From positions 4,007 through 68,006 of the IMG/VR virus record IMGVR_UViG_3300010283_000006: 64,000 bases of DNA; one strand, written 5' to 3'. The DNA is from a virus. Lineage: Duplodnaviria > Caudoviricetes. The notes beneath the pieces are model-generated. The model had not been told where the DNA came from, searched no databases, and saw only the letters and a program-made list of their open reading frames with translations. The position numbers and the translations under genes are program-made. Position 1 is the stretch's first letter, and each line of letters begins with the position of its first letter. This document shows positions 1 to 23,484 of this stretch, piece after piece.

Positions 1-114
1 CTTGAAAAAGCTAGGAAATATGCTGAAGATGAAAAATCTAAAGCAGAAAAGGCTAAAATTAAAGCTCAAAATATTACAGCATATAATGATGACTTATTAG
101 GTGAACTGTTATGA
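1..114 (+). CDS. 3' end of a hypothetical protein (partial)
   Basis: Open frame from base 1 to TGA 112-114, overlapping the ATG of the next gene (ATGA coupling). Confidence 0.6.
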   Translation, partial: LEKARKYAEDEKSKAEKAKIKAQNITAYNDDLLGELL

Positions 115-2111: not shown

Positions 2112-2971
2112 TGCCAGCTAAATATTTTAAATGTCTTGACGGCAATAAAATAGAGATTAGTGAGTGCTATAAAGATTGCCGTATGAAAGAAAGATGTATG
2201 CTGTTACCTGTTTTAAAGGCTGTTGGGAAAACAAGAGCTTGGTATGGTAAACCTTCAGTAACACAACTGCTAAAAGATACTAGGCAAACTTACTTAGAAA
2301 TTAAACATGATTATACTATTAATCCGCAAAATGCTATTGCTAGTATGATTGGTACAAATAGTCATAGTTTAATGGAAGGCAATGTTCCAAATGGTTTTCT
2401 TTCAGAAGTTAGGCTAGAGGATGATATTACGTCAGGACAGTTTGACGCTTACGATATGAAAAACAAAACCTTAATTGACTTTAAATTCTTTGGAGCTTAT
2501 CGAATTGCTATGGCTTTAGGTAAACGTCCTAGATGGGTAAATAAAGGTGTATACGTTCGTGGCGTTAATAAAGGCAAACCAAAATGGGTACAGGAATTTC
2601 AAGATGGCGGTGTAAAAGATGTATTAGAGATTAGCAAACAGCTATCGTATTATAAGATTTTAATGAAACAGCATGGTTTAGAAGTCAAAGACATTAAAGT
2701 TCAAATGCTTGTCAGAGGTGGTTTAGATAAAACTGCCAAAGGTTATGGTTTAGACAGAATGAGCTATGTTGTTAGGTTAAATGGTATTTCTGAACATTGG
2801 ATTAGAATGTATATGAAAGCTAAATACGATAAGTTGATGAAAGCTTTAGAAACTGATACATTACCACCTTTGTGTAAAAACAGATGGAATGATTTAAAAT
2901 GCAAGGAATATTGTGGAGTTAATGAGTTCTGTCCGTATTATAAGGAGAAATATATGGAGCATAAAAAGTGA
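2111..2971 (+). CDS. Cas4-like PD-(D/E)XK exonuclease (solo)
   Basis: GQFD...LIDFKF nuclease core, N-terminal Cys and C-terminal C-x8-C-x3-C-x5-C cluster as in Fe-S Cas4/AddB-type nucleases. Confidence 0.75.
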   Translation: MPAKYFKCLDGNKIEISECYKDCRMKERCMLLPVLKAVGKTRAWYGKPSVTQLLKDTRQTYLEIKHDYTINPQNAIASMIGTNSHSLMEGNVPNGFLSEVRLEDDITSGQFDAYDMKNKTLIDFKFFGAYRIAMALGKRPRWVNKGVYVRGVNKGKPKWVQEFQDGGVKDVLEISKQLSYYKILMKQHGLEVKDIKVQMLVRGGLDKTAKGYGLDRMSYVVRLNGISEHWIRMYMKAKYDKLMKALETDTLPPLCKNRWNDLKCKEYCGVNEFCPYYKEKYMEHKK

Positions 2972-3702
2972 AAGAAAACTACGTAGACAAATATAAAGAA
3001 TTGAATTTCTTTGTTGTCGGCAAACCTTTTAGTGGAGCTGGATTAATAGCACGTATGATGTATGGTGATTGGAAAGGATTTAAGTATATTGATATGAATT
3101 ATCTGATTGACGATATGTATAATGACTTTCAAACAATCAATCAACATAAGGGACAAATGAGAATGGCGGTAAGAAGTTCTGTTATTCTTAAAAATGCTGA
3201 ATATCTTTATCGAAGTATCGGTATTCCTGAATTTATAGCGGCTCAAAAAATGTGGGAATGGCAAAAGCTGTTAGACGAAAACTGTTCTCCTGCCAAATTG
3301 AAAACAGTTATTTGGCGAAGTATGTGTGAGTTCAATCCAAATTGGCGTAAAATCTACGTCAGACAAAGAATGATTGAACGTCCTTCGTACAAGTATGTTT
3401 TTAGTCACGCTATGTCAAAAGAGGAATTATCCTTTGTTAAAAACCCTATTATTATATGGGTAGATACAACTGATATTAGCGAATACCGACACTTATATAA
3501 TTCCAAACAAGGCATTGTTAAACAAGATTGGAATTATAGAGAGTATAAAGGCTTTTGTAATTATTGTAGAGATAATGCTACGTTTGTAATTTATAACAAT
3601 GGTAGCATTAATGAATTAGAGTATCAATTAGAAGATTTAAGGAAGGCGATTGGAATTGAAAGAAACACAAAATCATTTGCGTTTTACAGAAAAGTTAAAT
3701 AA
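2968..3702 (+). CDS. Hypothetical protein, possible degenerate nucleotide-kinase fold
   Basis: N-terminal FFVVGKPFSGAG resembles a P-loop; C-terminal FVIYNNGSINEL resembles dNMP kinase ends. Weak. Confidence 0.35.
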   Translation: MKENYVDKYKELNFFVVGKPFSGAGLIARMMYGDWKGFKYIDMNYLIDDMYNDFQTINQHKGQMRMAVRSSVILKNAEYLYRSIGIPEFIAAQKMWEWQKLLDENCSPAKLKTVIWRSMCEFNPNWRKIYVRQRMIERPSYKYVFSHAMSKEELSFVKNPIIIWVDTTDISEYRHLYNSKQGIVKQDWNYREYKGFCNYCRDNATFVIYNNGSINELEYQLEDLRKAIGIERNTKSFAFYRKVK

Positions 3703-3822
3703 CAAGAAAGAAGGTATGTATATGAACAAAACAGATAAAACTAAACAAGGTAGCTATTGCCCTAAAGAGATTGGTTGTTGCTGGAACTTCTTTAAGAAGA
3801 AAAAAGAAACAGTTAAAGCCTA

Positions 3823-4416
3823 ATGCCTTGTATTTGTAATCAGTGTACTGTCAGAAATTGCAAGATGAAAAAGACGTTAAAGAAACGTACTCTAGGCAAA
3901 AGAAACCGCAATACTGGCAGATATGCTGAACAGAAGTTGCTTAAACTATTCCAATCTTGGAATATTAATATTCACCAAACTATCGCTAGTGGTAGTTTGA
4001 AACAGGTTACAAACAGATTATCTAAACAAGATAAGGATTTATTCATTAGTGACTTTTACACAGAAGATTTGATTAAAGGTGAAGTTATTCGCATTGAAAA
4101 CAAAAAACGTCAGTATAAAGTGTTTAAAAAATACTATGAGAAAACAGGCGATAAACCACTAATCATCAAAGACTTTTGTACGATAGTTAATCAAACAGAC
4201 TTCAAGAATATGCTAGATGGAAAATTCAATCAGCCGTATGAAGTAATTGAAGATAAGAATAACAAGCTGTTACATGATTTTTTTAATCAAGATAATGCTC
4301 AAATAGTTAGTTTGATTAGTCCTGATGATAACTCTAGTCGATATAAAGATTTTCTGTTCTGTATAGATAATAAAATTATAAACAAGTTAATTAAAGAAAG
4401 AGGTATGCACAAATGA
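3823..4416 (+). CDS. Hjc-like Holliday junction resolvase (start may be ATG 3865)
   Basis: NRNTGRYAEQKL...IASGS...SD...IRIENK matches the Hjc/PD-(D/E)XK pattern; replication-module context. Confidence 0.6.
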   Translation: MPCICNQCTVRNCKMKKTLKKRTLGKRNRNTGRYAEQKLLKLFQSWNINIHQTIASGSLKQVTNRLSKQDKDLFISDFYTEDLIKGEVIRIENKKRQYKVFKKYYEKTGDKPLIIKDFCTIVNQTDFKNMLDGKFNQPYEVIEDKNNKLLHDFFNQDNAQIVSLISPDDNSSRYKDFLFCIDNKIINKLIKERGMHK

Positions 4417-4721
4417 AATTTTTAAATCAAGTTGTTATTGCTGGTTATATTGGAAATATTGGTGACACTAAAGCTACTAAAGCTGGTTCTCTGATGAACT
4501 TCTCTTTGAGCTTTAGTAATGGTAAGAATAAAGAAAATAAAACTAAATACGCTTTCATCAACTGCACTACTTTTGACGATGAAGTTATTGAAGCTGTATC
4601 TGCTTTCGGCAAAAAGGCTAAAGTCCTTGTAACTGGTCGACTTGCTGAAGATAGCTATACTAATAAAGAAGGTAAAGAAATCCGTCAACTGAAAATGATT
4701 GTAGAAAATGTCTGCCAATAA
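4413..4721 (+). CDS. ssb: Single-stranded DNA-binding protein (short, no acidic tail)
   Basis: LNQVVIAGYIG...VLVTGRL...YTNKEG OB-fold SSB signature. Confidence 0.88.
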   Translation: MKFLNQVVIAGYIGNIGDTKATKAGSLMNFSLSFSNGKNKENKTKYAFINCTTFDDEVIEAVSAFGKKAKVLVTGRLAEDSYTNKEGKEIRQLKMIVENVCQ

Positions 4722-4726
4722 GGAGA

Positions 4727-5689
4727 TTGAATATGAACTTTGATAAATTGAGAAAAGGCGATATGCTCATTACTACCGATACTATTAAACTGACTAATAC
4801 TTGTGATGATTATGTTAAAAAAGGTACGAAACTAGAAGTAGTAGGTAAGTTGAGTAATGGTAATATTGGTGTAAAAGAAGATGTATTTAGTCCTAGTGGA
4901 AAAGTTACTATGTATGTCATTACTAAAGATGATATTGATAAAGTTAAGTTGGTTTCTAAATATGATGTAGGGGATGTATTAGAATTTCCGCACTCTATGC
5001 GCTTAACTGTTTATCGTAATGAGAAAGCTAAAGGTTCTATTAATATAACTTTCCAAAAGGGTAATCAAATTGCTATCCGTTCTATCGTTCCACAATACTA
5101 TAATTGCACAGTAATTAGTGGCGAATATAAAGGTGAGCATATTACTATTGTTCAAGACCTTGCTGACTATTTCTTAGAGAAACTTGGTAATACTATTGAT
5201 GGCGATTTTGGTGATGATAAAAAAAGAGGTGAAAACTACATGAATAAGCCTATTGGTTTTAAATATGGTGATTTGGTAAATTATTATAAATCTGTTTGTG
5301 CTGACGATAAAAAACCTTCTCTTGCATTGAATACTAATCTTATGTTTATTAGTTATTTAGATACACCCATTCCTTATCATAAAGACCATAGTATTCCTCT
5401 TGATTGTGTGTGCTCTACTCTTGATACACATGAAACTGTATTAGCTCATTCCGCTTCTCTTAAAGCCGTAAAGACTAATCATTGCCTTAACAAACATGAA
5501 ATTACTGTGAAAGTAAAAGGTAATCGTGTGAAATATATGGATAAAGTTGGTAATAATGAATATGTTGGCGTAGCTGTTTGTGATAACGAAGATGTATTTA
5601 ATCTTAGAACTGGTTTGCTTTTAGCAATTTCTAGAGCATATGGTGATAAAGCTCTTGGTGATTTTGCTTTAGATAGATTTAAAGACTAA
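4727..5689 (+). CDS. Hypothetical phage protein
   Basis: Long ORF with GGAG RBS; C-terminal GVAVCDNEDVFNLRTGLLLAISRA is a typical phage motif. Confidence 0.6.
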   Translation: MNMNFDKLRKGDMLITTDTIKLTNTCDDYVKKGTKLEVVGKLSNGNIGVKEDVFSPSGKVTMYVITKDDIDKVKLVSKYDVGDVLEFPHSMRLTVYRNEKAKGSINITFQKGNQIAIRSIVPQYYNCTVISGEYKGEHITIVQDLADYFLEKLGNTIDGDFGDDKKRGENYMNKPIGFKYGDLVNYYKSVCADDKKPSLALNTNLMFISYLDTPIPYHKDHSIPLDCVCSTLDTHETVLAHSASLKAVKTNHCLNKHEITVKVKGNRVKYMDKVGNNEYVGVAVCDNEDVFNLRTGLLLAISRAYGDKALGDFALDRFKD

Positions 5690-5701
5690 GGAGATAATAC
5701 A

Positions 5702-8251
5702 TTGAATACACCTATTGAACGCATGAAAACTCAAATTGATTATGCTAAAAATTTTAATGTCAATAAATTTGATTTTTGGTGGAGAGATTATATCGCCAAA
5801 AACATTTTGACTAAAAAATATTATCACGATGAAGAACTGGAAGTTTTTAATAAAGGTGGTACAGAGAACGAAGATATTGCCTTCGATATGTTTGTTAATC
5901 GTGTAGCAAGTATTGTTCCTGAATATGACGATGAAGTAATGAAGTTTATGAAAAACAGCTTATATAGCGGTGATTTTATCTTAGCTGGCAGAAGTCTTTA
6001 TGGTGCTGGTGCTAAAGGTAAATTTAAATCATCTATGAGTAATTGTTATATTCTTCCTAAGCCTGAAGATAATTTAGAAAGTATCTTTGATGTATCGAAA
6101 GAAATGGCACGTATCTTTTCTTATGGCGGTGGTTGTGGCGTAGATATTTCTAACCTTAGACCTAAAAACGCTAAAGTTAAGAATGTAGCGAGAACTTCTA
6201 GCGGTGCTGTTAGCTTTATGAATTTGTTTAGTTCGGTTGGCGAATTGATTGCTCAACAAAACAGGCGAGGTGCAATTCTTATCGCTATGGATTGTAATCA
6301 TCCTGATATTGAAGATTTTCTGACTATCAAACAAAATAATGATAAAGTTCAGGGTGCTAACATTTCTATTAAGTTCACTGATGAATTTATACAAGCTGTT
6401 AAAGGCAATAAAGATATTCAGCTTTACTTTAAGGTAAAAGCTACTGGCGAAGAAATTACTAAAACTATCAATGCTGGTGAGTTCTTCACAAAGTTTGCTG
6501 AAGCTCAACATGGATTTGCTGAACCTGGTGCACTCTTTATTGATACAGTTCGTAATTGGAATATGCTTAGTGAATATAAAGATTATAAGATTGACGTAAC
6601 TAATCCTTGTGCGGAGTTTTGTGGCAATGAATATAATTCATGTAATCTTTCCAGTGTTAATCTTTATAACTTTGTAAAAAATCCATTTACTCGTAATGCT
6701 GAATTTGATTTTGAACGCTTTAAACAGACAGTAACTAACGCTGTACATATGGCAAACTATGTTCTTGATTATGGTTATGATACACAGCCATTAGAAGAAA
6801 ATAGAAAATGTATTGATAACTGGCGTTCTATCGGTATTGGTGTATTTGGAGTAGCTGATATGTTGGTTGCATTAGGTATTCCATATGGCAGTAAAGATAG
6901 CATTAAGGTTATCGAAGATGTTATGAAGCATATGCAAGTATACACCTTTGAAGCTAGTATTGAAAATGCTAGAAAAAATGGTACTTTTGATAAATTTGAT
7001 TGGCAAAAAACTGTTAAGTCAAAATATGTACAGGCATTAATCAAAAACTATGCTGAAATCTATAATATGGCTGAAAAAGGTGCTGAAGCAGAGCTTATCA
7101 ACAAACTTTCTAAATATGGTTTGGCTAATGGTACAATCTTGTCTATCGCTCCTACTGGCAGTATTGCAATGTTGTTTAGAGAAAGTGGCGGTGTAGAACC
7201 TTATTATCAAGTATGTTATGAGCGTACTACACATCAACTTGAAAAAGAACATAAGAAGTTTACTATCTCTATGTTGGCAGTAGAGCATATGCTAAAATCT
7301 AGTGCAATGTGCAAAGATATGGTTTTAGGCAAAGATATTACCGAAAAGGAAATTAAAGAAATGTTTCCGTGGGTAGTTAATACTTATGATGTATCTCCAT
7401 ACGATAGAGTTGATATGCAAGCTGTTATGCAAAAATACGTTGATAATGCTATCTCTAGTACAATCAATCTTAAAGAAAGTGTTAGTCCAATCCTTATCTT
7501 TAACTTATACTTATACGCTTGGCAAAAAGGCTGTAAAGGTATTACAGTATTTAGAGATAACTGTGAGCGTATCAGTATTTTAGGTAAAAATCATGGTAAA
7601 ACTAGAGATAATAAGCAAGATGTATCTTTAGATGAAAATACTAAAGCCATAGAAGATAAAAATAACTCTATTGAAGTTGTATCTAATACACCTGTTTTAG
7701 ATAGCATTATGCCAAATAAACGTAATCCACAAACTTCATTATGGGGCAGAACATTCCTGTATCATACAGCTTGTGTACCTAAGTTCTATGTAACTGTAAA
7801 CATCAAAGATGGTGAGTTGTTTGAAGTATTTGTCGGAGCTGATAAAGGTTGTCAGGCTAATATTGCTACAATTACTAGACTTACAAGTTTGTGTCTGCGT
7901 AGCGGTATTAAAGTAGATGAAGTTATTAAAAATCTTAATTCTGCTTTATGTCCTGCTTGCGCTAATCAGAAACGCAAAGGTGATTTGACCGTAAATAAAT
8001 CTTGTGCAAGTTGTATTGCAAGTGCTTTAATTGAAATGCGTAAATCACTTAATGGTGGTAAAGCAAAACTTGATGATAAACAAAAAGTTGAGTTTACAGA
8101 AGTAGAAAAAGTGCCTACTGAAATTAAAATGGTTAAAGTATCTACTGACAAACCTAAACTTGCTAACTGTCCTGAATGTGGTAAAAATACATTGATTGCC
8201 GAAGGACGTTGCTATTATTGCTCTAATTGCGGTTGGAGTAAGTGCGATTAA
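5702..8251 (+). CDS. nrdJ: Class II (B12-dependent) ribonucleotide reductase with C-terminal Zn-ribbon
   Basis: SNCY, GGGCG, TNPCAEF (radical Cys), CNLSSVNL and IAPTGS motifs; C-terminal CPECG...CYYCSNCGWSKC; no NrdB seen. TTG start after AGGAG. Confidence 0.9.
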   Translation: MNTPIERMKTQIDYAKNFNVNKFDFWWRDYIAKNILTKKYYHDEELEVFNKGGTENEDIAFDMFVNRVASIVPEYDDEVMKFMKNSLYSGDFILAGRSLYGAGAKGKFKSSMSNCYILPKPEDNLESIFDVSKEMARIFSYGGGCGVDISNLRPKNAKVKNVARTSSGAVSFMNLFSSVGELIAQQNRRGAILIAMDCNHPDIEDFLTIKQNNDKVQGANISIKFTDEFIQAVKGNKDIQLYFKVKATGEEITKTINAGEFFTKFAEAQHGFAEPGALFIDTVRNWNMLSEYKDYKIDVTNPCAEFCGNEYNSCNLSSVNLYNFVKNPFTRNAEFDFERFKQTVTNAVHMANYVLDYGYDTQPLEENRKCIDNWRSIGIGVFGVADMLVALGIPYGSKDSIKVIEDVMKHMQVYTFEASIENARKNGTFDKFDWQKTVKSKYVQALIKNYAEIYNMAEKGAEAELINKLSKYGLANGTILSIAPTGSIAMLFRESGGVEPYYQVCYERTTHQLEKEHKKFTISMLAVEHMLKSSAMCKDMVLGKDITEKEIKEMFPWVVNTYDVSPYDRVDMQAVMQKYVDNAISSTINLKESVSPILIFNLYLYAWQKGCKGITVFRDNCERISILGKNHGKTRDNKQDVSLDENTKAIEDKNNSIEVVSNTPVLDSIMPNKRNPQTSLWGRTFLYHTACVPKFYVTVNIKDGELFEVFVGADKGCQANIATITRLTSLCLRSGIKVDEVIKNLNSALCPACANQKRKGDLTVNKSCASCIASALIEMRKSLNGGKAKLDDKQKVEFTEVEKVPTEIKMVKVSTDKPKLANCPECGKNTLIAEGRCYYCSNCGWSKCD

Positions 8252-8345
8252 CTAATTAAATATATTGCCCTGATATGAGAAGGGTGCTATTTCTGTACCC
8301 TTCTTTATCCGAAATTAATTTAAAAACAGATAGGAGAAACAGATA

Positions 8346-8543
8346 ATGAAAAAACGTATTCATTCTAAAACATGGACACCTAAAGTAAAACCTTATGAAC
8401 TCTATAATATCTTTGCTCATCTCGACGAAAAACAGATTGATTTGCGTAGAAATAAACCTTTTGAATGGTGGCAACGTATGTTAGAGAAAGCTAAATCTTT
8501 TAACAAGAAATATATTGAGAAAGCTGGTAATGCTAATGCTTAA
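8346..8543 (+). CDS. Hypothetical protein
   Basis: AGGAG RBS, coupled to the next ORF. Confidence 0.6.
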   Translation: MKKRIHSKTWTPKVKPYELYNIFAHLDEKQIDLRRNKPFEWWQRMLEKAKSFNKKYIEKAGNANA

Positions 8544-8739
8544 ACTTGTAAATACTGTCTTAACTAAAGTTTCCAATGGTTTGTATCAGGCTTCTTTGAA
8601 AGCATATGACTTTGAAAAGAGTGTAGCTAAAAAGCGTGTAAGTATCTTGCGTGATTGTAATTCTCGTATGTCATACAAAATCATGGAGAACAAAGATATT
8701 ATCGTTAGTTTGGAAAACACTTATGATTTGAATAAATAG
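8530..8739 (+). CDS. Hypothetical protein
   Basis: ORF in the coupled middle-gene run. Confidence 0.55.
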   Translation: MLMLKLVNTVLTKVSNGLYQASLKAYDFEKSVAKKRVSILRDCNSRMSYKIMENKDIIVSLENTYDLNK

Positions 8740-8748
8740 GTGTTTTAA

Positions 8749-8931
8749 ATGGTTATTGAAATCTTATGTATTATTACAACTATCTCTATGTTAGTTGCTA
8801 GATTAGCTGGCTGTGAAGCTCTTACAACTGGTGTAATCTTATCGCCGATTATCGGTTATTCAATCGCTTATCTTATGCTTTATATGGCATATAAATTAAT
8901 GCAAGAAAGGAGTGATAACAATGACAATTAA
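8749..8931 (+). CDS. Small membrane protein
   Basis: Two hydrophobic segments, AGGTG RBS. Confidence 0.55.
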   Translation: MVIEILCIITTISMLVARLAGCEALTTGVILSPIIGYSIAYLMLYMAYKLMQERSDNNDN

Positions 8932-9088
8932 AGAGCTTTACGAATGGGCAAAAGCTAATGACTGCGAGGACTATGAAATCAATGTTGAGTGCTATGATGA
9001 AGATGGAGATATTTCTGAAGTGTGGCTTGACAGCGAAAAGATTGTTAAAAAGCGTAGATTTGATGTACTGATTAATTGCGCAAGATAA
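8921..9088 (+). CDS. Small acidic hypothetical protein (not in ORF track)
   Basis: AAGGAG RBS; MTIKELYEWAKAN...INCAR, 55 aa. Confidence 0.6.
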   Translation: MTIKELYEWAKANDCEDYEINVECYDEDGDISEVWLDSEKIVKKRRFDVLINCAR

Positions 9089-9096
9089 GGTGAAAA

Positions 9097-9522
9097 ATGA
9101 ACAGAAACTTAATTCCTGTAATCTGTAAGACGCTAGGCGTAGATATTGAAGAAGAATTTAAAATTAATGTCTATAACGATGATATTTTCCGAATTACCAA
9201 AACTGGATTAGAAAAACAATTTATAGATGAATTTGATGGTTCTAAATGGTGGGAACAACTTTCATCAACTATTTTTACAGATTTATTAGCTGGCAATATA
9301 GAAATTATTAAATTACCGTGGAAACCAAAAGTTGATGAAACGTACTATTCATTTTACTATCGGCAAAAAGATGAAACGTGGGTGGTTACTGGTATATTAT
9401 GGGATAACGATGTTGTTGACAATGCACTTTTTAAAGCTGGGTGGATATTCAAAACAGAAGATGAAGCTCGTGAAGCATTACCATCTATCGCAACAGAAGC
9501 AGGTGCAAAGTATGAACAGTAA
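9097..9522 (+). CDS. Hypothetical phage protein, paralog A
   Basis: MNRNLIPVI..LGV..E.FKI...KLPWKPK; paralogous to the next gene. Confidence 0.7.
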   Translation: MNRNLIPVICKTLGVDIEEEFKINVYNDDIFRITKTGLEKQFIDEFDGSKWWEQLSSTIFTDLLAGNIEIIKLPWKPKVDETYYSFYYRQKDETWVVTGILWDNDVVDNALFKAGWIFKTEDEAREALPSIATEAGAKYEQ

Positions 9523-9639
9523 TTTTGTATGTATGATTTTTTAGTAGCCTTAATTATTGGTACATTTTGTGGTGCTGTAATAATAACCATGTTGTTTTGG
9601 ATTAATGAGTTTTCAAGATATACGAAAGGAGATAAAGAA

Positions 9640-10092
9640 ATGAACGAAAATTTGATACCCAAAATAGCTGAAATGTTAGGGGTAACTCTTAATGAAAAAT
9701 TTAAGATTGATAAATATGGCAATAGGATATTTAAGTTTAGTGATGATAGCCTTTGGGAAAGAGTTGTAGAAGGTGATGATGAAAATCAATACGTTACTTG
9801 GGGCGAAAGCTTGCTCTGTCTAAAACAACTTCTTAATGGTAATGCTAAAGTTATCAAATTGCCGTGGAAACCGAAAGTGGGCGATACTTTCTATACTTTC
9901 GATTTAATTTATGGGAAATGGGTTGTTTGCTCATTTACACGAGCATGGATAGGTTCTCCTTCCAATTATGCTTTACTTGATAAAGGATGGATATATCGTA
10001 CAGCTAAAGAAGCACTGCAAAACTTACCTAAAGTTGCTAAAGAATACGATGTTCCGTGTTCCTTAGATGGACAATCTTACGAGGAAGATTAA
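9640..10092 (+). CDS. Hypothetical phage protein, paralog B (ORF track starts at 9529)
   Basis: AAAGGAG RBS before MNENLIPKI; same LGV/KFKI/KLPWKPK/GWI motifs as paralog A. Confidence 0.7.
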   Translation: MNENLIPKIAEMLGVTLNEKFKIDKYGNRIFKFSDDSLWERVVEGDDENQYVTWGESLLCLKQLLNGNAKVIKLPWKPKVGDTFYTFDLIYGKWVVCSFTRAWIGSPSNYALLDKGWIYRTAKEALQNLPKVAKEYDVPCSLDGQSYEED

Positions 10093-11222
10093 TGAAAATA
10101 GGAATTATTGACGCTGATTTAATTGGTAGAAAGAAACATTACTTTCCTAACCTTGTATGTATGAAGTTATCTGCGTGGCACAAGAAAAAAGGTGATAAAG
10201 TAAAGTTTTTAACTCAATATTATCACCTTACAGAATATGACAGAGTATATGTAGCTAAAGTATTTACAGATACACCTGTTCCTGACGAAGTTTTGAAAAT
10301 GTCTAATGTTATATATGGTGGTACTGGTTTCTTTTATGATAAAGCTGTTCCACTTATGTTTGAAATAGAACAGATTAAACCTGACTATCACCTATATGAC
10401 GAATATGTAAAACAAAAACTATCTGAAGGACAGAGTAGAGATAAATACAAATACTATCTTGATTATTCTATCGGTTTTGCTACTAGAGGTTGCTTTAGAA
10501 AATGCCCATTCTGCGTCAACCAAAATTCAGAGTACGTGACTTTACATTCTAATATTGTTGACTGGGTAGATAAAGACAGAAAGAAGATTTGTCTATTAGA
10601 CGATAATGTTTTGGGTGCTAAACAATGGCAATGGGTATTAGAAAAGCTAATACAGATTGGTAAGCCATTTCAGTTTAAGCAAGGATTAGACGAACGCTTA
10701 CTTACTCACGAAAAACTAGAATGTTTAAGAAATTGTAAGCTTGATGGTGATTTAATCTTTGCTTTTGATAACTTGGCTGACAAAAATATTATTATCTCAA
10801 AACTGAATCTGTTACGTATTTTCTTTCCAACTAAAAAGAATATAAAATTCTATGTTTTATGCGGATTTGATAGAGATAATAAATACGATAAAGAGTTTTG
10901 GATAAAAGATATTCATTCAGTATTTGAGCGTATCAAAATATTAGCTAATTATGGTTGCAAGCCTTATATTATGAGATTTGCAAAGTACAAAGAAAGTCCA
11001 TTTAAAGGTACTTATATTAACCTTGCAAGCTGGTGTAATCAGCCTAGTATATATGCTCATTATAGCTATCAAGATTACTGTTTAGAAAAAGACAAACAGC
11101 TTCACGATGATAGAAAATCTTCTACATACAGATATTACGAAGAATTTCTGCCTTATATGACAGAAGAAGAAAAGACTTTTCAATTTAAAGGGAGATACAA
11201 TTATGCAAGTAACGAATACTAG
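10092..11222 (+). CDS. Radical SAM protein with N-terminal B12-binding-like segment
   Basis: TRGCFRKCPFC (CxxxCxxC); N-terminal IGIIDAD...PNLVCMKLSAWHK..GD.V; LLDDNVL. Confidence 0.82.
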   Translation: MKIGIIDADLIGRKKHYFPNLVCMKLSAWHKKKGDKVKFLTQYYHLTEYDRVYVAKVFTDTPVPDEVLKMSNVIYGGTGFFYDKAVPLMFEIEQIKPDYHLYDEYVKQKLSEGQSRDKYKYYLDYSIGFATRGCFRKCPFCVNQNSEYVTLHSNIVDWVDKDRKKICLLDDNVLGAKQWQWVLEKLIQIGKPFQFKQGLDERLLTHEKLECLRNCKLDGDLIFAFDNLADKNIIISKLNLLRIFFPTKKNIKFYVLCGFDRDNKYDKEFWIKDIHSVFERIKILANYGCKPYIMRFAKYKESPFKGTYINLASWCNQPSIYAHYSYQDYCLEKDKQLHDDRKSSTYRYYEEFLPYMTEEEKTFQFKGRYNYASNEY

Positions 11223-11835
11223 AGTTTATGGTTTAGAAGAAAGTATTTTAGCTAGTGGTTATCCTATGCTTTCTAAGCCATATACAGAAGAAGAATTTAA
11301 AAAAGAAGTAGTAGATATGTTTACTCAACAAGGTGAATGTAAATACGAAAATAAAAACATCTTTGAAGAAAATAAACACTTTAAACGCTTTATGAAGTTA
11401 TCTAAAGCTAAAGCTGGTAGCGGACATGATTGTGCGTTAAAGGGTGCAATCGTTCAAATGGACGTAACAGCTCCACAATACTTTTGGCAACAACTTCAAA
11501 GATACCACTTCATTGATTTTGTAAGCTCAAACTCCAAAATGCACTGTATCACAAAATTTGATTTAGATAAGCAAGTTGATAATAGCGTAAGTTATGAAGC
11601 ACTGAAAAATCTTAAAGAATATATCGACCTGTATCAGAGTAACGAATGTTCTATCGATGATGTTTTGAAAAATGTACCAATGGGATTAAATTTGACTGCT
11701 AGACTGACTACTAACTATCTTCAGTTAAAAACAATCTATTCACAAAGAAAAACACATCGTAGTCAAGAGTGGCACGTATTCTGTGATTGGATTAAAACAT
11801 TACCATACGCAAAGGAGCTGATTACACATGAATGA
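11203..11835 (+). CDS. ThyX/Thy1-like protein (divergent)
   Basis: QQLQRYHF...SSNSKMH resembles the RHRxxS motif; LTTNYLQL...R.TH..QEW resembles the ThyX C-terminus; next to dUTPase. Confidence 0.5.
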   Translation: MQVTNTRVYGLEESILASGYPMLSKPYTEEEFKKEVVDMFTQQGECKYENKNIFEENKHFKRFMKLSKAKAGSGHDCALKGAIVQMDVTAPQYFWQQLQRYHFIDFVSSNSKMHCITKFDLDKQVDNSVSYEALKNLKEYIDLYQSNECSIDDVLKNVPMGLNLTARLTTNYLQLKTIYSQRKTHRSQEWHVFCDWIKTLPYAKELITHE

Positions 11836-12124
11836 ATTAACTATCGAAGAATTACTTGATAAAGCCATTAATAAAGAAAAACTTACCGAAGAACAGTGGA
11901 AAATGGTTGTTAGCTACGCCGAGGATAATGAGATTGATGAAGTAGAGGGGAAAACAAGACGTTGGACTAGACGTTGTGTTATAATTCTCCCTTACAAAGA
12001 TAAGATTTATGGCGTTAATTATGATACAGGATTAACAGAATATCAAGAGAACGATTATACTAGATGTTTTATTTCTGAAGTCCGTCAAGTAGTTAAAGCG
12101 ATTAAAGTTTGGGTGTTTGTGTAA
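11828..12124 (+). CDS. Hypothetical protein
   Basis: Coupled ORF with AAGGAG RBS. Confidence 0.6.
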   Translation: MNELTIEELLDKAINKEKLTEEQWKMVVSYAEDNEIDEVEGKTRRWTRRCVIILPYKDKIYGVNYDTGLTEYQENDYTRCFISEVRQVVKAIKVWVFV

Positions 12125-12384
12125 TGAATGATTTGACTTGTATTGATATGGTTGGCAATACCTTACATATTGGTGACGAAATTATCTTTCACACTAAAAA
12201 GTATGGTAGCTGTTTCGATGTATCTGTTATTGAGAATATAGAGAAAGATGTAAAGCAGGTAGTAAACCAACATAAAAAAGTAAAAAGCGACAAAGTTTAT
12301 TTCAAACAAAAACGCAGTACAGGTTCATATATGATTTATAAATTTAGTTATGAAGTGATTAAACTTATCAGAGAGGAAGAATAG
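12124..12384 (+). CDS. Hypothetical protein
   Basis: TAATG coupling; D..GN.L.IGD.I motif common in phage proteins. Confidence 0.6.
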   Translation: MNDLTCIDMVGNTLHIGDEIIFHTKKYGSCFDVSVIENIEKDVKQVVNQHKKVKSDKVYFKQKRSTGSYMIYKFSYEVIKLIREEE

Positions 12385-12386
12385 TA

Positions 12387-12584
12387 ATGTTATATATCAA
12401 AGATATTAATGGTAATTTTATTGGCAAAGATGATAGAGTTCTGTTTTGTATGAACAATAAACTGCATATTGGTTACTTGTATAAAATCTGTCCACAGAAA
12501 GTAGCGATTAAGTATATGTTTGCTAATCGTTATGAACGCAGAACTTATGTAGACCATAATAAAGTAGTAAAGGCAGAGGTGTAA
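12387..12584 (+). CDS. Hypothetical protein
   Basis: DINGNFIGKDDRV, same small family as the previous ORF. Confidence 0.55.
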   Translation: MLYIKDINGNFIGKDDRVLFCMNNKLHIGYLYKICPQKVAIKYMFANRYERRTYVDHNKVVKAEV

Positions 12585-12586
12585 TA

Positions 12587-13141
12587 ATGAATAAAATTCG
12601 TGGGTTTGAACTTATTTCTGATTTGAACAATACTGATAAAACAACTAAAGCTCTTATCTTACCTGAAAGAAAAACTAAATCATCTGCTGGTTATGATGTT
12701 TCTGTAATTCATCCTTTGGTATTTGAGTTTTTAAAAGAAGGTTTGACTTTACAAGATGCTTGGTTGTCTGCTAGTAATATCTCTACTGATGGTAAACGCT
12801 TCTCTATTGTACATAAGCCTGATGATAAACAAGCTATCTTACTTCCTACTGGCATTAAAGCATATATGCAAGATGATGAAGTATTGCTGATGGCAATTCG
12901 TAGCTCTAAAGGCATTAAACAAGGTATTAGACAAGCCAATCCACCTTCTATTATTGACGCTGATTATTATAACAATATAGATAACGAAGGACATATTTTC
13001 TTTGCTGTATCTAATGCAAGTATTGTTTTCGACCAGCCTATTATGCCTATTGCACAAGGTATGTTTGCTAAATATCTGATTGTTGATAACGATAATGTTG
13101 TTACGGAACGTATGGGTGGAATTGGGAGTACAGATAAATGA
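12587..13141 (+). CDS. dut: Trimeric dUTPase
   Basis: SAGYD, LLPTGIKA, RSS, IIDADYY, AQG and RMGGIGST motifs I-V. Confidence 0.92.
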   Translation: MNKIRGFELISDLNNTDKTTKALILPERKTKSSAGYDVSVIHPLVFEFLKEGLTLQDAWLSASNISTDGKRFSIVHKPDDKQAILLPTGIKAYMQDDEVLLMAIRSSKGIKQGIRQANPPSIIDADYYNNIDNEGHIFFAVSNASIVFDQPIMPIAQGMFAKYLIVDNDNVVTERMGGIGSTDK

Positions 13142-13437
13142 GATATATCGAAGAAGTCGAATTAGGCGGAAAATCTCGGTATTTTAACTTAAACTTGTTT
13201 TCAAGTATTTATCTTGATAAAAAAATTAATTTAGCAAGTTCATTTAACTATATTGTTTTTATTGTTTTAACTGGTGTAGACAAGCATATTCCAATGAACA
13301 TTACACCTATTAGTTTAGATAATGCCAAATATTTACAGCATAAATTTTTAAAATTTCTAGACAATAAAAATGTAAAAATTATTTCTATTAATCCTCTTAA
13401 TGGTGGTATGGTTTACGAAGATGTATGTTTTAACTAA
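13138..13437 (+). CDS. Hypothetical protein
   Basis: ATGA-coupled ORF. Confidence 0.5.
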   Translation: MRYIEEVELGGKSRYFNLNLFSSIYLDKKINLASSFNYIVFIVLTGVDKHIPMNITPISLDNAKYLQHKFLKFLDNKNVKIISINPLNGGMVYEDVCFN

Positions 13438-13502
13438 TTAAGTTTATGGTGGAGCATTAGTCAGTTGATTAGTGCTTCACTATACAAAACAAGGAGAAAT
13501 AA

Positions 13503-13604
13503 ATGCAAAGTTATATTAAACAAGGTGATTGCTTAGAATTGAACGAGAATTATTTCAATATTGCGAAAGAAAGGATTAAAACATATGAAACAAAAAGAAA
13601 CTGA
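13503..13604 (+). pseudogene. Collapsed N4/N6 DNA methyltransferase remnant (N-terminus fused to C-terminus)
   Basis: AAGGAG RBS then MQSYIKQGDCLE|LNENYFNIAKERIK: GDCLE is the usual start and E.NENYF.IAKERI the usual end of beta-class phage MTases. Confidence 0.72.
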
Positions 13605-14124
13605 TGTAGAAGAAGTCATTGTTCATCAATACAAACTGCGCTTCAAAGGTGACTATTACAGAGTTTTAGTTACTGGCAGTAAATATGAAGCCGAAAAATA
13701 TATGAAAACCGAACTTAAAGCTGACGAAATTATTTGGGAAAAGTCTTTCGTAACTAACAAAGATATTGCTATCCGTGTAGGTACTGGCAATAAAACTATT
13801 GCTATGCAAGGTTGTTTCTTGCGAATGAAGTATCTTAGTGCAATGTCAGCGAAACGCTCTAATAATACATCAACCTCTCAACCTCTTAATATGGAGAAAA
13901 TCCAATCTGCTATTAGAAAAGATAGTAATACTAAATTTACTGTTAAAGAAATTAGAAAAGCTCAAAAAATTAGCACTAAAGAACTTGCTGGTGAATTGTT
14001 TATTGACAAGAATTATCTTTATAGTATCGAAAGAGGGAGAATTATCCCTGATGATGATATGAAAGCATTGATTAGTCAATTTTTAAATGTAGATGTAGAT
14101 AACATTGATTGGTTAGGTGAATAA
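13585..14124 (+). CDS. XRE-family HTH protein (C-terminal HTH)
   Basis: VKEIRKAQKISTKELAGELFIDKNYLYSIERG. Confidence 0.78.
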   Translation: MKQKETDVEEVIVHQYKLRFKGDYYRVLVTGSKYEAEKYMKTELKADEIIWEKSFVTNKDIAIRVGTGNKTIAMQGCFLRMKYLSAMSAKRSNNTSTSQPLNMEKIQSAIRKDSNTKFTVKEIRKAQKISTKELAGELFIDKNYLYSIERGRIIPDDDMKALISQFLNVDVDNIDWLGE

Positions 14125-14893
14125 CTTGAATAATACTTTAGACTATGAATTAATGGAATATCTTAGACAAAGTAAACTTCAAGAGTATTCTCTTAGTAGA
14201 AATCATTGGAGAGCTATTGAAAGAGCTTGTAATAAACGTCTTACAGACCAGTTAAACGAAACCTACAAATATAATCCTGAATACATCTATATTGAAAATG
14301 AAAGAGTATGCACCATAGAGTTCTTTTATAAAGAGCTAAAGAAAAGAATAGCGGTTACACCATTTTATGATGTATTGATGGTTTATGTTAACTGTAAGAA
14401 CAATGCTTTGGCTACTGCTAAAGAGCTAAGTGTATCTCATACTACAATTAATAATCACTTAAAGAAACTTCAGGGAATTGTAGATGAATTACTTCAGGAA
14501 TTAGGATTATCTAAAGATGAATTTAAATCTTATTTTACGCCTGAAATTAGTAATTACTTTGCTAGTTCATCTACTAATGTAGGTTATCCGTTTGAACATT
14601 ATATGAATTTACCTAAAGATAAGGAATGGCAAGATAAGTTCGGGACTAAACGTACAAAAGAACAAAATACCTGCCTTATTCCTGAATACTTACAGGCTTG
14701 TGGTTTGTGCAGTTGTCAATGTAATATCTGTACCGACACGAATAATTGTAGACGCAAAGATGTTTTCCCTGATAATGATAGAACTGGTGTATTAAAGCTT
14801 AGTAAAGCTAAAATCGAAGAATGTATTAACAATGCTATCGCTAATACATCAGCTTCAGCTTACAGTGGCTTAGAAAGGATTTATCAGATATGA
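14117..14893 (+). CDS. Possible sigma-like/HTH transcription factor with Cys-rich C-terminus
   Basis: ATAKELSVSHTTINNHLKKL HTH; CGLCSCQCNIC cluster. Confidence 0.45.
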   Translation: MNNLNNTLDYELMEYLRQSKLQEYSLSRNHWRAIERACNKRLTDQLNETYKYNPEYIYIENERVCTIEFFYKELKKRIAVTPFYDVLMVYVNCKNNALATAKELSVSHTTINNHLKKLQGIVDELLQELGLSKDEFKSYFTPEISNYFASSSTNVGYPFEHYMNLPKDKEWQDKFGTKRTKEQNTCLIPEYLQACGLCSCQCNICTDTNNCRRKDVFPDNDRTGVLKLSKAKIEECINNAIANTSASAYSGLERIYQI

Positions 14894-15429: not shown

Positions 15430-16242
15430 TTATATAGCAGAGAATATATCTCTAACTTGTTCTCTATGTTGTTGGCTGATATGTAAGTATCTTTGCGTAG
15501 ATTGGATTGATTTATGTCTAAGATGTTCTTTAATTACGAATAGGTTAATATTATTATCCAACAAAGTTACTGCTGAACCATGCCTAAAGCTATGACAATG
15601 CAATTCAGGATAACCAGCTTTAATACAGATATTTTTAATCTCTCTATAAAAAGCTACATAACCAATCTGTGTATTATTTCTAGTATGTAGTAAGTAAGTG
15701 CTGTTATAATCTATATATTCTTTAATCATACTAGCTAAACCATCTGTGATATAAACTTTATAGTCATTATGGTTTTTCGTATCTACAAGAAGAATTGATT
15801 TTTCATCTGCATTATAATTAGCTGTTTTAATACTCAAAACTTCTTCAGCTCTTAAACCATTCTGAAACATTAAAGATACAGCTATCTTACTTCTTAGATG
15901 TGCACAATGGTATAGGATGCGATGATATTGTTCTTTACTGACTACTGCTGGAACAATAGTCTTAGTATCTACTGATTGTAAAACTTGCAAGATAACTGGT
16001 AGACCATCAATGGTGATGTAGTTAGATAAAAAATCAATAAACTTCTTTAATATCCTACATCTTAGAGCTTTAGTATTTACTGAACAATCCCATTGTTGTA
16101 ATTTACTATTGATAAAATCCAATTCCAAATTTACTTTTCCATCCGAAAACCAATTTTTAAAGGCATTACAATAAGTGGTATAAGTATTGGTGGCTCTAGT
16201 AGCCTTAACCGACGCAAGATATTGTTTCAGGTATAAATCCAT
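15430..16242 (-). CDS. XerC/D-like tyrosine recombinase (no arm-binding domain)
   Basis: GLRAEE (Arg I), HSFRH (HxxR), LRHKSI and TQRY (catalytic Tyr); 270 aa. Confidence 0.9.
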   Translation of the reverse strand: MDLYLKQYLASVKATRATNTYTTYCNAFKNWFSDGKVNLELDFINSKLQQWDCSVNTKALRCRILKKFIDFLSNYITIDGLPVILQVLQSVDTKTIVPAVVSKEQYHRILYHCAHLRSKIAVSLMFQNGLRAEEVLSIKTANYNADEKSILLVDTKNHNDYKVYITDGLASMIKEYIDYNSTYLLHTRNNTQIGYVAFYREIKNICIKAGYPELHCHSFRHGSAVTLLDNNINLFVIKEHLRHKSIQSTQRYLHISQQHREQVRDIFSAI

Positions 16243-21034: not shown

Positions 21035-21268
21035 TTATTTACACCAATATTCAACAGTCATATACCTATTACTGTTATAGTTGGGTAATAACCACTTATA
21101 GCCTTCTCCGTATATGCCTTTATAAGGTTCTAAACTTCCTGCCGTTTTTCTGCTAATATAGCCACGTGCTAGGCTAGTTTTTTGCAGCTTATAGCCTTTA
21201 GCCGTTAAAGTCTTTTCAACTTCTTTCGCATTTTCTTTGATGATAACGCCTAACTTTTCAAAATTCAT
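21035..21268 (-). CDS. Early hypothetical protein
   Basis: MNFEKLG start coupled to the upstream stop; LARGYISRK motif. Confidence 0.6.
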   Translation of the reverse strand: MNFEKLGVIIKENAKEVEKTLTAKGYKLQKTSLARGYISRKTAGSLEPYKGIYGEGYKWLLPNYNSNRYMTVEYWCK

Positions 21269-21618
21269 ATTTGTTTTTTCCCTTTTTGTGCTATATCGTG
21301 CGCTAACTTTTCCCATAACTCATGTAATTTATCAATAGGAGTAGTAGCAGTATTGTTGTAAAATTTTCGTGCTACTTCTTCGTAGCTGTGTGTAAACTCA
21401 TAGTTTAAACGCAAATTACCAAAAGGAGCATATCCAGTTACAATACAAATACTAGGCGTAATTTCGTATACATCTGCACCCCAACCTTCCATACGTTCTG
21501 TGTGTCCTACTTTTTTTGCTTGTAATAATGTATAGTACAAATCACAGTAACCGCAGTAAGCTATAATTGCATAGTCTTCTTTAATTTGTTTTTTTGTTAA
21601 ACGTGGGTTGATACTCAT
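21265..21618 (-). CDS. First gene of the leftward early operon, hypothetical
   Basis: AAAAGGAG RBS; GYCDLY..L...GWGADVY...IVTGYAPFG typical phage early family. Confidence 0.65.
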   Translation of the reverse strand: MSINPRLTKKQIKEDYAIIAYCGYCDLYYTLLQAKKVGHTERMEGWGADVYEITPSICIVTGYAPFGNLRLNYEFTHSYEEVARKFYNNTATTPIDKLHELWEKLAHDIAQKGKKQI

Positions 21619-21868
21619 TTTCTTTTTTTCTCCTTTTTTGTGTTTGTTTTAAGCAGTAATTTTACTACTACACTAACACACAAATTTAATTGTATGCTAG
21701 TATTAAGTAAAATTTTCGTTTTTATCTAAACTATAACTTCTTGTTTCATAAATTTCTAACAAGATAGAAAATATAAAAATTCTTTTTTTATCTGCCGTTT
21801 ATATTCGGCAGAAGTGCGGAACAGTCTTTTATTCCCTGCTATAAAGTGTTTATAGCCTTCTTTTAAAT

Positions 21869-22130
21869 GCTTACTTCTATGAGCTGTTTCAACATTTAAT
21901 AACTTAAAAGATTGATACATTATGTTATTTTTTGGTTACTTCTATGAGCTGTTTCACCGCATGGAATATTATAATTCGCTTACTTCTATGAGCTGTTTCA
22001 GCGTTCCTAACATATATTCTTCTATATAGGCTTACTTCTATGAGCTGTTTCAGCCTGATATAAGCTAACTACATTTTTAATCATTAGCAAGCTATATATT
22101 ATATATCGGTTACTTCTATGAGCTGTTTCA
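21869..22130 (-). repeat. Array of five 23-nt repeats G(C/G)TTACTTCTATGAGCTGTTTCA, irregularly spaced (hairpin array)
   Basis: Copies at 21869-21891, 21934-21956, 21978-22000, 22030-22052, 22108-22130; gaps 42, 21, 29, 55 nt. Confidence 0.95.
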
Positions 22131-22240
22131 CCGCTATATACTATATAACTGATATTTATTTTCAATGTACAAATACGCTAGGGAAACAAGCAAATCCGCT
22201 TATCGGATTGTAACTATTCTTTTTCCCTTTCATTGTATAT

Positions 22241-22269: not shown

Positions 22270-23425
22270 GCGTTTTTATAGCTTTTTCTAAAAAAATCTT
22301 ATAAAAATCTATGGAAAATAGAATACAAGAATATTCAGTTTATTTGAAAATCCGCTTCAAAACGTCATATTTAGCTTGTACGGCAATGAAGCTTTTACGC
22401 ATATAATTATATTCAAAAATTTTTTTCGTTGAATATGAACCAAAATAACAAGCGGCTTTTTAACAGTGTATTTTGGTATAAGTAGGGAAGTACGCATAAA
22501 TTTATAAAATAGCGTGGCAAGGCTGTAAAAGTGTGTAGTAGTCTAATATTGCAATTTTATAAAATAGTTGCGTTTATCCGCATTTCATACTATTATGTAT
22601 GGTAGTTGTTGGCTATGAAATACATAATATTTACCGGGTACAATAGTTATTATTCATCAATATATTACACAATATAATAATAGTTATTGATAAGAGTAGC
22701 TATAATGTAATGGGTTATGGTTGTTGATTGATAATACACATTCAGTCTAAATTTGATTAAGTAATAATTATTATTCATACAATGCAACAAAATAGACAAG
22801 GCTATATAGTGTATACTAATAAAAATACAGTGTACACTACTGCATACACCATGTTTACTGCATTTTCCCATGTACAGTTAAACATAGCTTATTGATTGTA
22901 TTAGTTAGCATGAGTTAACATAACTTGTCAATCAGATATAGTATTATATATATGATTATATCGTGAATATAGTTAGATAAAGCTAACTGAAAAGACAATA
23001 TAATTGTAGTTATATTGTTGTTACAAGGCTTTTCCCCGTGTAGGTTATAATTCATAGCGTGGCGGTATGTTTTTCCAGACCTGAAAATTCTGAAAATTCA
23101 GTATAAACGCGGTGAAATTCAAACAAATTCTGTCTATATCTTTACATTTTTAGTCAATCTCATTCAACAAAACAATATGTTTACACTTTTTATATAATTA
23201 TTACAAATATAAATCACATTTATACAAATATAATATTTATCTTGTCAATGTTAGCAACTGATATAACACTACCTATGGTATCTACAATTTAACCAAAAAG
23301 GGTGTATCAGGTACTATATAATGAAGAAAAATTTTTATATATTGATGAAAATATCGAAAATCACTGGAAATCTAACAGTAAACCAGTGTTATGCAAAATA
23401 AAATCCGAAAATCCGTAAATAGTGA

Positions 23426-23454
23426 TTGACAACCATATATAAAAGTGATATACT
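23426..23454 (+). promoter_or_regulatory. Strong sigma70/A-type promoter
   Basis: TTGACA-17 nt-TATACT, 30 nt before an AAGGAG-led ORF. Confidence 0.85.
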
Positions 23455-23484
23455 ATACTTAACAAAAGAAAGGAGCTACTGTAT

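Follow-up and report, generated by a model that had tools for sequence, protein, structure and literature searches.

Genes and features of the early leader

The window examined here is a stretch of 64,000 nucleotides (nt) from a gut phage, corresponding to positions 4007-68006 of a 68-kb IMG/VR virus record, itself estimated to be 97% complete. Within it, a leftward operon of small genes without known families begins at a sigma-70-type promoter on the minus strand (TTGCAA-17-TATAAT, 22269-22241; 10/12 consensus matches) and ends near a tyrosine integrase. The first conserved gene of the operon, at 21265-21618 on the minus strand, encodes a 117-amino acid (aa) protein of no known family and is preceded by the ribosome binding site (RBS) AAAAAGGAG. 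Between the promoter and this gene lies a variable cassette of ~560 nt (~21637-22200, minus strand) comprising an array of repeated units and a structured tail of ~220 nt. The array is built on a 21-mer core, TGAAACAGCTCATAGAAGTAA, that is present in five exact minus-strand copies at 21871-21891, 21936-21956, 21980-22000, 22032-22052 and 22110-22130; with 100 shuffles, the number expected by chance is zero. Five repeated minus-strand units with complementary flanks had been described in an earlier note on this DNA, and these counts bear that description out. The core motif is confined to 280 bp of the record, with no sixth copy in the window at up to three mismatches and no copy beyond the five in the whole 68-kb record.

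The promoter had been described as pointing into the array, and it is conserved in every relative recovered. Both hexamers are kept in the relatives L014, L023-25, L036 and L037, and the sequence in L039 and L040 is TGTAAT. In relatives that lack the array, the same promoter has an AAAGGAG RBS and an ATG ~45 nt downstream. Since the promoter drives the first open reading frame (ORF) in those genomes, it is taken to be a real operon promoter and the array to be an insert in its 5' leader. Judged from this arrangement of sequences, the array should form the 5' leader of the leftward early operon and would be transcribed as such. Homologues of the 117-aa protein are encoded by array-bearing and array-less genomes alike.

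As previously reported, the stretch from the promoter to the ATG at 21618 has no RBS-led ORF. Two listed ORFs run over the array (22022-22165 and 21756-21920). Neither has an RBS, and with unit spacings that are not multiples of 3 the repeats do not share a reading frame; a coding repeat is ruled out on these grounds. Array variants of the CTTAG type place a stop codon in the spurious ORF. Public gene calls over such arrays in L036 (972-1205) and L037 (733-966) translate only 'with TAG=Q'; these calls reflect a spurious ORF that runs through the hairpins and do not point to recoding of a stop codon. Calls of this sort are, for their part, a useful handle for fetching non-coding relatives, and about 20 further contigs were recovered by a protein search with the spurious 54-codon frame over unit 5. 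Phage promoters of the T7 type were also considered for the repeats and rejected: the motif is confined to 280 bp, and no phage RNA polymerase is encoded among the ten ORFs of 111-14893 that were scanned.

Several observations concern the surroundings of the operon. Near the end of the leftward block, 15430-16242 encodes a tyrosine recombinase of 270 aa (Pfam Phage_integrase, 5e-26; PHROG integrase, 1e-36), so the phage is probably temperate or plasmid-like. Apart from this integrase, the genes neighboring the cassette have no informative family, and none has a known counter-defence function. On the other side, ~1.2 kb of AT-rich DNA without an RBS-led ORF (22300-23480) separates the divergent leftward and rightward operons; it is ~87% conserved in relatives and holds several repeats and palindromes. 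Upstream of the early promoter, direct repeats of 15-17 nt (consensus ~CTATTTTATAAAWTTGT, minus strand) are found at 22498-22512 and 22553-22567, exactly 55 nt apart, and this spacing is kept in all relatives (L014 2134/2189, L023 45/100, L025 1017/1072). The pair is a candidate for the operator sites of the genetic switch. In a 169-kb ENA scaffold (L026), a more distant homologue of the 117-aa protein, with 66% identity, is encoded between a tyrosine integrase and a gene for a T7-like RNA polymerase N-terminal domain; L026 may represent a larger element of another kind, or host DNA that carries a prophage.

Stem pairing around an invariant core

Numbered from the promoter, the five units share a closing U-A pair. 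Because this pair never varies, the invariant core is 21 nt long, and of the invariant 19-nt loop proposed earlier the invariance stands and the length does not. Outside the closing pair, flank positions -1/+1 read G-C, C-G, C-G, G-C and U-G in units 1 to 5, positions -2/+2 are invariably G-C, and positions -3/+3 read C-G, G-C, C-G, C.A and U-A. The gaps between hairpin bases are ~50, 24, 18 and 36 nt (start-to-start 78, 52, 44 and 65); these values correct the 42, 21, 29 and 55 nt given before and leave intact the claim that the spacing is irregular.

All of the hairpins lie on the minus strand. Unit 1 (22090-22150) combines the stem CGG/CCG with a long A-U helix for a total of 19 pairs and folds with an energy of -16.6 kcal/mol (z -3.4). 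Unit 2 (22023-22062) reaches 18 pairs through the stem AGGC/GCCU, a bulged C and then an A-U helix. Unit 3 (21977-22003) has the stem CGC/GCG, and its centroid structure is the closing helix. Unit 4 (21934-21958) is the weakest, having only GG/CC before the C.A position, and unit 5 (21863-21899) has a 9-bp stem, UUAAAUGUU/AGCAUUUAA, with one U.G pair. The counts of 19, 18 and 9 pairs for units 1, 2 and 5 refer to folds with the core held open, and the helices are A-U-rich. The longest spacer, between units 1 and 2 (22057-22106), could form a small hairpin, GCUAA-15 nt-UUAGC, and is nearly unchanged in all five-unit relatives.

Further hairpins lie on either side of the units. A leader hairpin (AAUCCG/CGGAUU, 22193-22209) followed by a U-rich tract is terminator-like and marks the left edge of the array cassette; its 3' arm is found only in array-bearing genomes. 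In the tail, the hairpin GCUAUAAA-CAC-UUUAUAGC (21838-21856) is part of the cassette and is kept alongside the array in L022 and L036-38. A second tail hairpin, UCUGCCG-8 nt-CGGCAGA (21791-21812), is followed by an A-tract and then a U-tract and is no canonical terminator. For the units themselves, intrinsic terminators were ruled out by the lack of a U-tract after any array stem.

The stems differ between units yet stay complementary, just as the earlier note described, and their pairing beats both shuffled and slid controls. We aligned 14 distinct units, drawn from the window and its relatives. Pairing of the 4-bp closing helix in this alignment is 91%, versus 71% after shuffling of the 3' letters; none of 500 shuffles reaches 91%, a count that overstates independence since the rows are paralogues or close orthologues. 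When the partner is slid by 1-3 columns, pairing is at most 46%, and the covariation score across the 14 units is 0.445 versus 0.115. The same closing helix is predicted unaided by RNAalifold, and at least three double-sided (compensatory) changes distinguish the five paralogous stems.

Conservation of the stems in homologues had been proposed as a check, and orthologous arrays do carry compensated stem changes. In L036-38, the 3' arm of unit 2 changes from CCUA to CUGA and a register shift bulges a G instead of the C; with this double substitution, the folding energy moves from -10.2 to -10.1 on the minus strand and from -6.6 to -3.7 on the antisense strand. In the same three genomes, C21807 in the tail hairpin at 21791-21812 is replaced by U, and the resulting U.G wobble can pair only on the minus strand. 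In L036 and L037, the C22205-G22197 pair of the leader hairpin is replaced in a compensatory manner by U-A. On comparative grounds, then, the units look like hairpins whose pairing is under selection.

When the core is kept open in the fold, each of the five units closes across it on the sense strand, and four are more stable on this strand than on the antisense strand (in unit 5, -4.9 versus -2.3); the exception is unit 4, which folds better on the plus strand. The argument from G-U pairs for a minus-strand RNA thus holds for most units and fails for unit 4. Since the bias in stability agrees with the orientation of the promoter, a minus-strand RNA is favored. Hairpins 3 and 4 are thermodynamically marginal, with 3-4 bp closing 19 nt, and being so weak alone they must be aided in closure by a partner or by a non-canonical structure of the core. 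A partition function gives ~45% for an upper stem within the core, consisting of A5-U19, C6-G18, a 2x2 purine internal loop, C9-G15, U10-A14 and a C-N-U tip. The sole polymorphic base of the core (A/U) is the middle one of this predicted apical triloop.

Pairing of the flanks bears on whether the element works as RNA at all. The control region between the divergent operons is AT-rich and poor in ORFs, and its five identical 21-bp direct repeats resemble the clustered ~20-bp repeats of origin iterons and asymmetric operators, and the copies could be double-stranded DNA (dsDNA) sites of that sort, or partition or packaging sites. Such an assignment is quite improbable. Iterons and operators are recognized as duplex, with flanks that may vary without staying complementary, whereas the flanks here covary as stems, which a dsDNA site does not need. 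The array is also missing from close relatives whose flanking control region is ~87% identical, it comes in 5 or 2 copies, its start-to-start spacings (78, 52, 44, 65) are out of helical phase, and its units sit 100-370 nt inside what would be the transcribed leader. Moreover, the repeat pair at 22498-22512/22553-22567 makes a better operator candidate.

Covariation is equally compatible with hairpins in single-stranded DNA, where G.T pairs are tolerated, and the phage encodes its own primase-helicase and DnaE; the units might then serve replication or recombination, for example in primosome loading or as recombinase sites. This seems highly improbable, given that the array is optional among relatives and located in a promoter-proximal leader. 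No HUH or Rep-type gene was found near the array, and loops of 19 nt extrude poorly from duplex DNA.

A swappable slot and the variation of the array

Comparison with relatives shows that the cassette occupies a slot with changing content. Homology with L014 breaks at 22194 and 21636, with 82-93% identity on both sides; 1470 nt of small ORFs replace window positions 22193-21637 in that genome, and its first conserved protein is 81% identical. In L023/24 and L025, ORFs fill the slot and the repeats are absent. In L022, two hairpins are present, 21658-21973 with the tail of the cassette is 95% identical, and ~950 nt of ORFs come next; array and ORFans are found together in the slot in L022 and L027-35. 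Among pig-gut contigs aligned to the region, those of three runs cover the array, and one contig swaps 21599-22218 for 262 other bases. Array variants occur in ~20 contigs from pig, human and other gut-type assemblies, with either 5 or 2 units. The array is therefore an optional, accessory element that sits in a hypervariable ORFan slot. Across the slot (L014 2510-3979; L025 1400-2940; L022 3447-4402), the sets of 40-144-aa ORFans differ and include one small membrane protein; no slot ORF matches a Pfam or PHROG family.

A swappable slot is the usual layout of early accessory or counter-defence regions. With the array optional in such a slot, an accessory role resembling counter-defence or host takeover fits better than an essential signal in cis, such as antitermination. 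A lambda-type nut site (boxA/boxB) is comparable in that it, too, is a leader hairpin of a leftward early operon directly after the promoter. It differs in being one essential site, with a boxA partner and a loop of 5 nt; the array has a 19-nt loop in each of its five copies and is missing from close relatives. A nut-type antitermination site was rejected on the five copies and on L014, L023 and L025, which keep the promoter and operon without the array. The existence of close relatives without the array argues in the same way against an essential site, an origin or an operator.

A less specific role in cis is harder to dismiss. The units could be sites for RNase III or other processing, 5' stabilizers, or sites for a factor that tunes how the early operon is read through or translated. 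The array has its place in the 5' leader just behind the small hairpin with a U-rich tail, which could attenuate transcription; the stems of units 1 and 2 (18-19 bp) are long enough for RNase III, whose preference for stem length is well established; and the leader as a whole (617 nt) is unusually structured, folding far better than shuffles (z -5.4). Against this, the same promoter serves the same operon in close relatives that have no array, processing or stabilizing hairpins need no invariant 21-nt core, a flexible number of copies (5 or 2) suits dosage better than a switch, and no array stem is followed by a U-tract. A leader function in cis is accordingly rated unlikely.

The array variants fall into four forms. 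In form a (the window and L038) there are five units, and all cores read ..CUCAUAG..; in form b (L036 and L037) there are again five units, and all cores read ..CUCUUAG... The same spacers are conserved in all five-unit relatives. Form c (L022, L027-35) has two units, a unit 1/unit 4 fusion whose core has U and unit 5 whose core has A, and form d (L039, L040) consists of unit 1 and a unit 2/unit 5 fusion, both with U. As the fusion units indicate, the two-unit forms arose by core-to-core recombination. Since copy number can shift between 5 and 2 by this route, dosage is flexible.

The cores also evolve in concert. All five cores of L038 and L036 differ at one and the same position (A/U), and outside the cores only 1 of 187 array positions differs between the two genomes. 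The five-unit lineage with the switch from A to U in every core comprises two contigs (L036, L037). Because of the concerted evolution, only ~21 core sites are independent, and a change at 1 of 21 does not fall below the 4.7% by which the spacers diverge. Invariance of the core between lineages is therefore no proof in itself of purifying selection; selection is demonstrated for stem pairing only.

These features give some room to the notion of a selfish or neutral repeat, spread locally, homogenized by gene conversion and without function for phage or host. Recombination and conversion of the cores are evident in the fusion units and in the five-fold A/U change, core divergence between lineages is no lower than that of spacers once concerted evolution is allowed for, and the element is confined to one phage lineage. 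A neutral repeat offers no reason, however, for the unique flanks of each copy to pair or for substitutions in them to be compensated, and the cassette persists in ~20 contigs from pig and human gut. A functionless repeat is therefore considered improbable.

Possible role and comparison with known RNAs

The reading that we favor, and hold tentatively at somewhat less than even confidence, takes the array for an accessory module of non-coding RNA that is transcribed in the leader of the early operon and serves as a multivalent decoy or sponge. In such a module, each unit would be a hairpin whose basal stem need only pair in order to present the invariant 21-nt core, either single-stranded or folded as an irregular upper stem tipped by 3 nt. 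With five copies per transcript, one recognition element would be displayed multivalently. Most likely the RNA would act in trans, being made early in infection and titrating either an RNA-binding factor, of host or phage, or a host RNA complementary to it. The decoy or sponge might be of the counter-defence or host-takeover type, because the position of the cassette and its optional nature point there. Transcription, action in trans and decoy function are all presumed in this account. The multivalent early RNA element suggested in the earlier note is supported in part, by hairpins whose pairing is under selection and by the conserved promoter; any likeness to ToxI, CRISPR repeats or tracrRNA would be conjectural.

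A more specific version can be put forward with considerably less confidence. The array may be an RNA decoy for counter-defence or host takeover of a new class, distinct from CRISPR-repeat mimicry, whose invariant 21-nt core, perhaps compactly folded, captures an RNA-binding immune effector, a nuclease or a global regulator of the host as infection begins, with the A/U tip tracking host alleles. This is a minority option, and a doubtful one.

In their proposed mode of action, the closest match to the array is provided by the sponges CsrB, RsmY/RsmZ and CrcZ, in which one RNA carries several hairpins with the same motif in each and the number of copies sets the capacity. The array departs from them in having a motif of 19-21 nt with neither GGA nor an A-rich CA motif, and in being phage-encoded, optional and part of an operon leader. 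Sponges of the Csr/Rsm type bear GGA in their loops; the core GAAACAGCUCAUAGAAGUA has no GGA, and there is no Rfam match to the type either.

Phage pseudo-ToxI and type III antitoxin RNAs offer another parallel as repeated RNA units in phages whose copy number is altered by recombination. ToxI-type units of ~34-36 nt are contiguous, head-to-tail and without spacers, and fold as a pseudoknot with the toxin, whereas the array has a 21-nt core with unique flanks and spacers of 18-50 nt. Contiguous tandem units are not what is found here, with starts 65, 44, 52 and 78 nt apart and unique spacers between them. No ToxN/AbiQ-type endoribonuclease family was detected by Pfam or PHROG among the ten downstream phage genes. 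A CRISPR array, which would have a regular period and spacers that vary from strain to strain, was rejected as well, on the irregular spacing and on the occurrence of the same spacers in all five-unit relatives. Since the spacers are unique, irregular and conserved, the element is neither a CRISPR array nor a ToxI-type tandem.

Phage RNA anti-CRISPRs are established in the form of repeat mimics (PMC10651486) and viral sgRNA mimics for Cas9 (bioRxiv 10.64898/2026.06.03.729762; 10.64898/2026.06.01.729453). Racr or solitary repeat units and sgRNA mimics resemble the array in being small structured phage RNAs that have an early promoter and lie in accessory regions, and they inactivate a host factor by mimicry (PMC10651486; bioRxiv 10.64898/2026.06.03.729762). 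None of these published phage RNA inhibitors of CRISPR is described with an array architecture of the present kind (PMC10651486; bioRxiv 10.64898/2026.06.03.729762, 10.64898/2026.06.01.729453). Racr RNAs preserve the repeat's own stem-loop; in the array the stems differ and the 'loop' is fixed, the reverse of a repeat mimic, and there are five units with unique spacers.

Could the core nonetheless imitate or pair with a host CRISPR repeat or a tracrRNA anti-repeat? The precedents just cited speak for such a mimic or sponge, which is judged very improbable on several counts. No CRISPR-DR or tracrRNA model in Rfam matches at E up to 10, no array-like multiple match at up to three mismatches appears in 401 genomes of one Firmicutes phylum, and the 19-mer has only single chance matches in bacterial reference genomes. 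Known repeat mimics keep the stem of the repeat, whereas the stems of the array vary freely, and a 'loop' of 19-21 nt is unlike the hairpins bound by Cas6, Cas12a and Cas13.

Some short likenesses of the core may be drawn, all of them conjectural. The core loosely resembles a type II tracrRNA anti-repeat (AAACAGC..AUAG.AAGU.AA), and it starts with UGAAAC, as many class 1 CRISPR repeat ends do. It may likewise be compared with a AUUGAAAC-type crRNA tag, with the H43 loop of 23S rRNA (CUUAGAAG) or with the anticodon loop of tRNA-Met/Lys (CUCAUA/CUCUUA), and its stem-adjacent bases with sarcin-ricin (AGUA/GAA) or UAA/GAN internal-loop motifs. Likenesses of such sizes are expected by chance.

The earlier note recognized no family, and this stands. 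A search of Rfam with the 3-kb region and with the array alone (E up to 10) gave no match, including to the CRISPR-DR, tracrRNA and Csr/Rsm models; the best scores (E 0.29-8.9) were far below gathering thresholds, and none fell on the hairpin cores. The array belongs to no known family and is best filed under the idea of a multivalent or decoy RNA. To our knowledge, the known RNA weapons of phages are few, namely CRISPR-repeat and sgRNA mimics and pseudo-ToxI, and all were found through resemblance to a host RNA. The array, by comparison, came to light purely through its structure and has no catalogued likeness. Should it titrate a host factor, RNA-based counter-defence would extend beyond CRISPR, and hairpin arrays in ORF-free leaders of uncultured gut phages would merit systematic searches. 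If it is merely a leader in cis or a selfish repeat, it would still be a clean example of concerted evolution and compensatory change in non-coding phage DNA. Since array-plus and array-minus, five-unit, two-unit and A/U variants occur naturally, the proposals are directly testable in a ready genetic system.

Searches for relatives, partners and hosts complete the analysis. An exact-motif scan of metagenome contigs returned one true relative, L022. Among viral contigs, the core in its A and T versions, searched exactly, matched either nothing or, singly and by chance, an unrelated and apparently coding sequence that 7 of the 8 contigs have in common. Among bacterial reference genomes, the 19-mer gave 7 single chance matches in seemingly coding DNA of unrelated bacteria, as judged by eye from the flanks and not by ORF calling. 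A duplex scan of the loop against the whole phage gave a best non-self energy of -19.4 kcal/mol, within the range of shuffles (-15.8 to -19.9). The region and an 8-kb structural block had no blastn match to isolated phages. By tblastn, the terminase and DnaE matched only at 40% identity or less, to phages of many hosts, and so point to no one host. In 401 evenly drawn genomes of the one Firmicutes phylum, searched on both strands at up to three mismatches, core matches were at the level of a reversed-pattern control, with no array-like or rRNA-like multi-copy signal. The portal protein found three matches in 401 genomes, at ~33% identity. One sampled Firmicutes genome (G247) holds GAAATACCTCAAAGAAGTA, three mismatches from the core, in four copies, and this is probably an unrelated multi-copy element.
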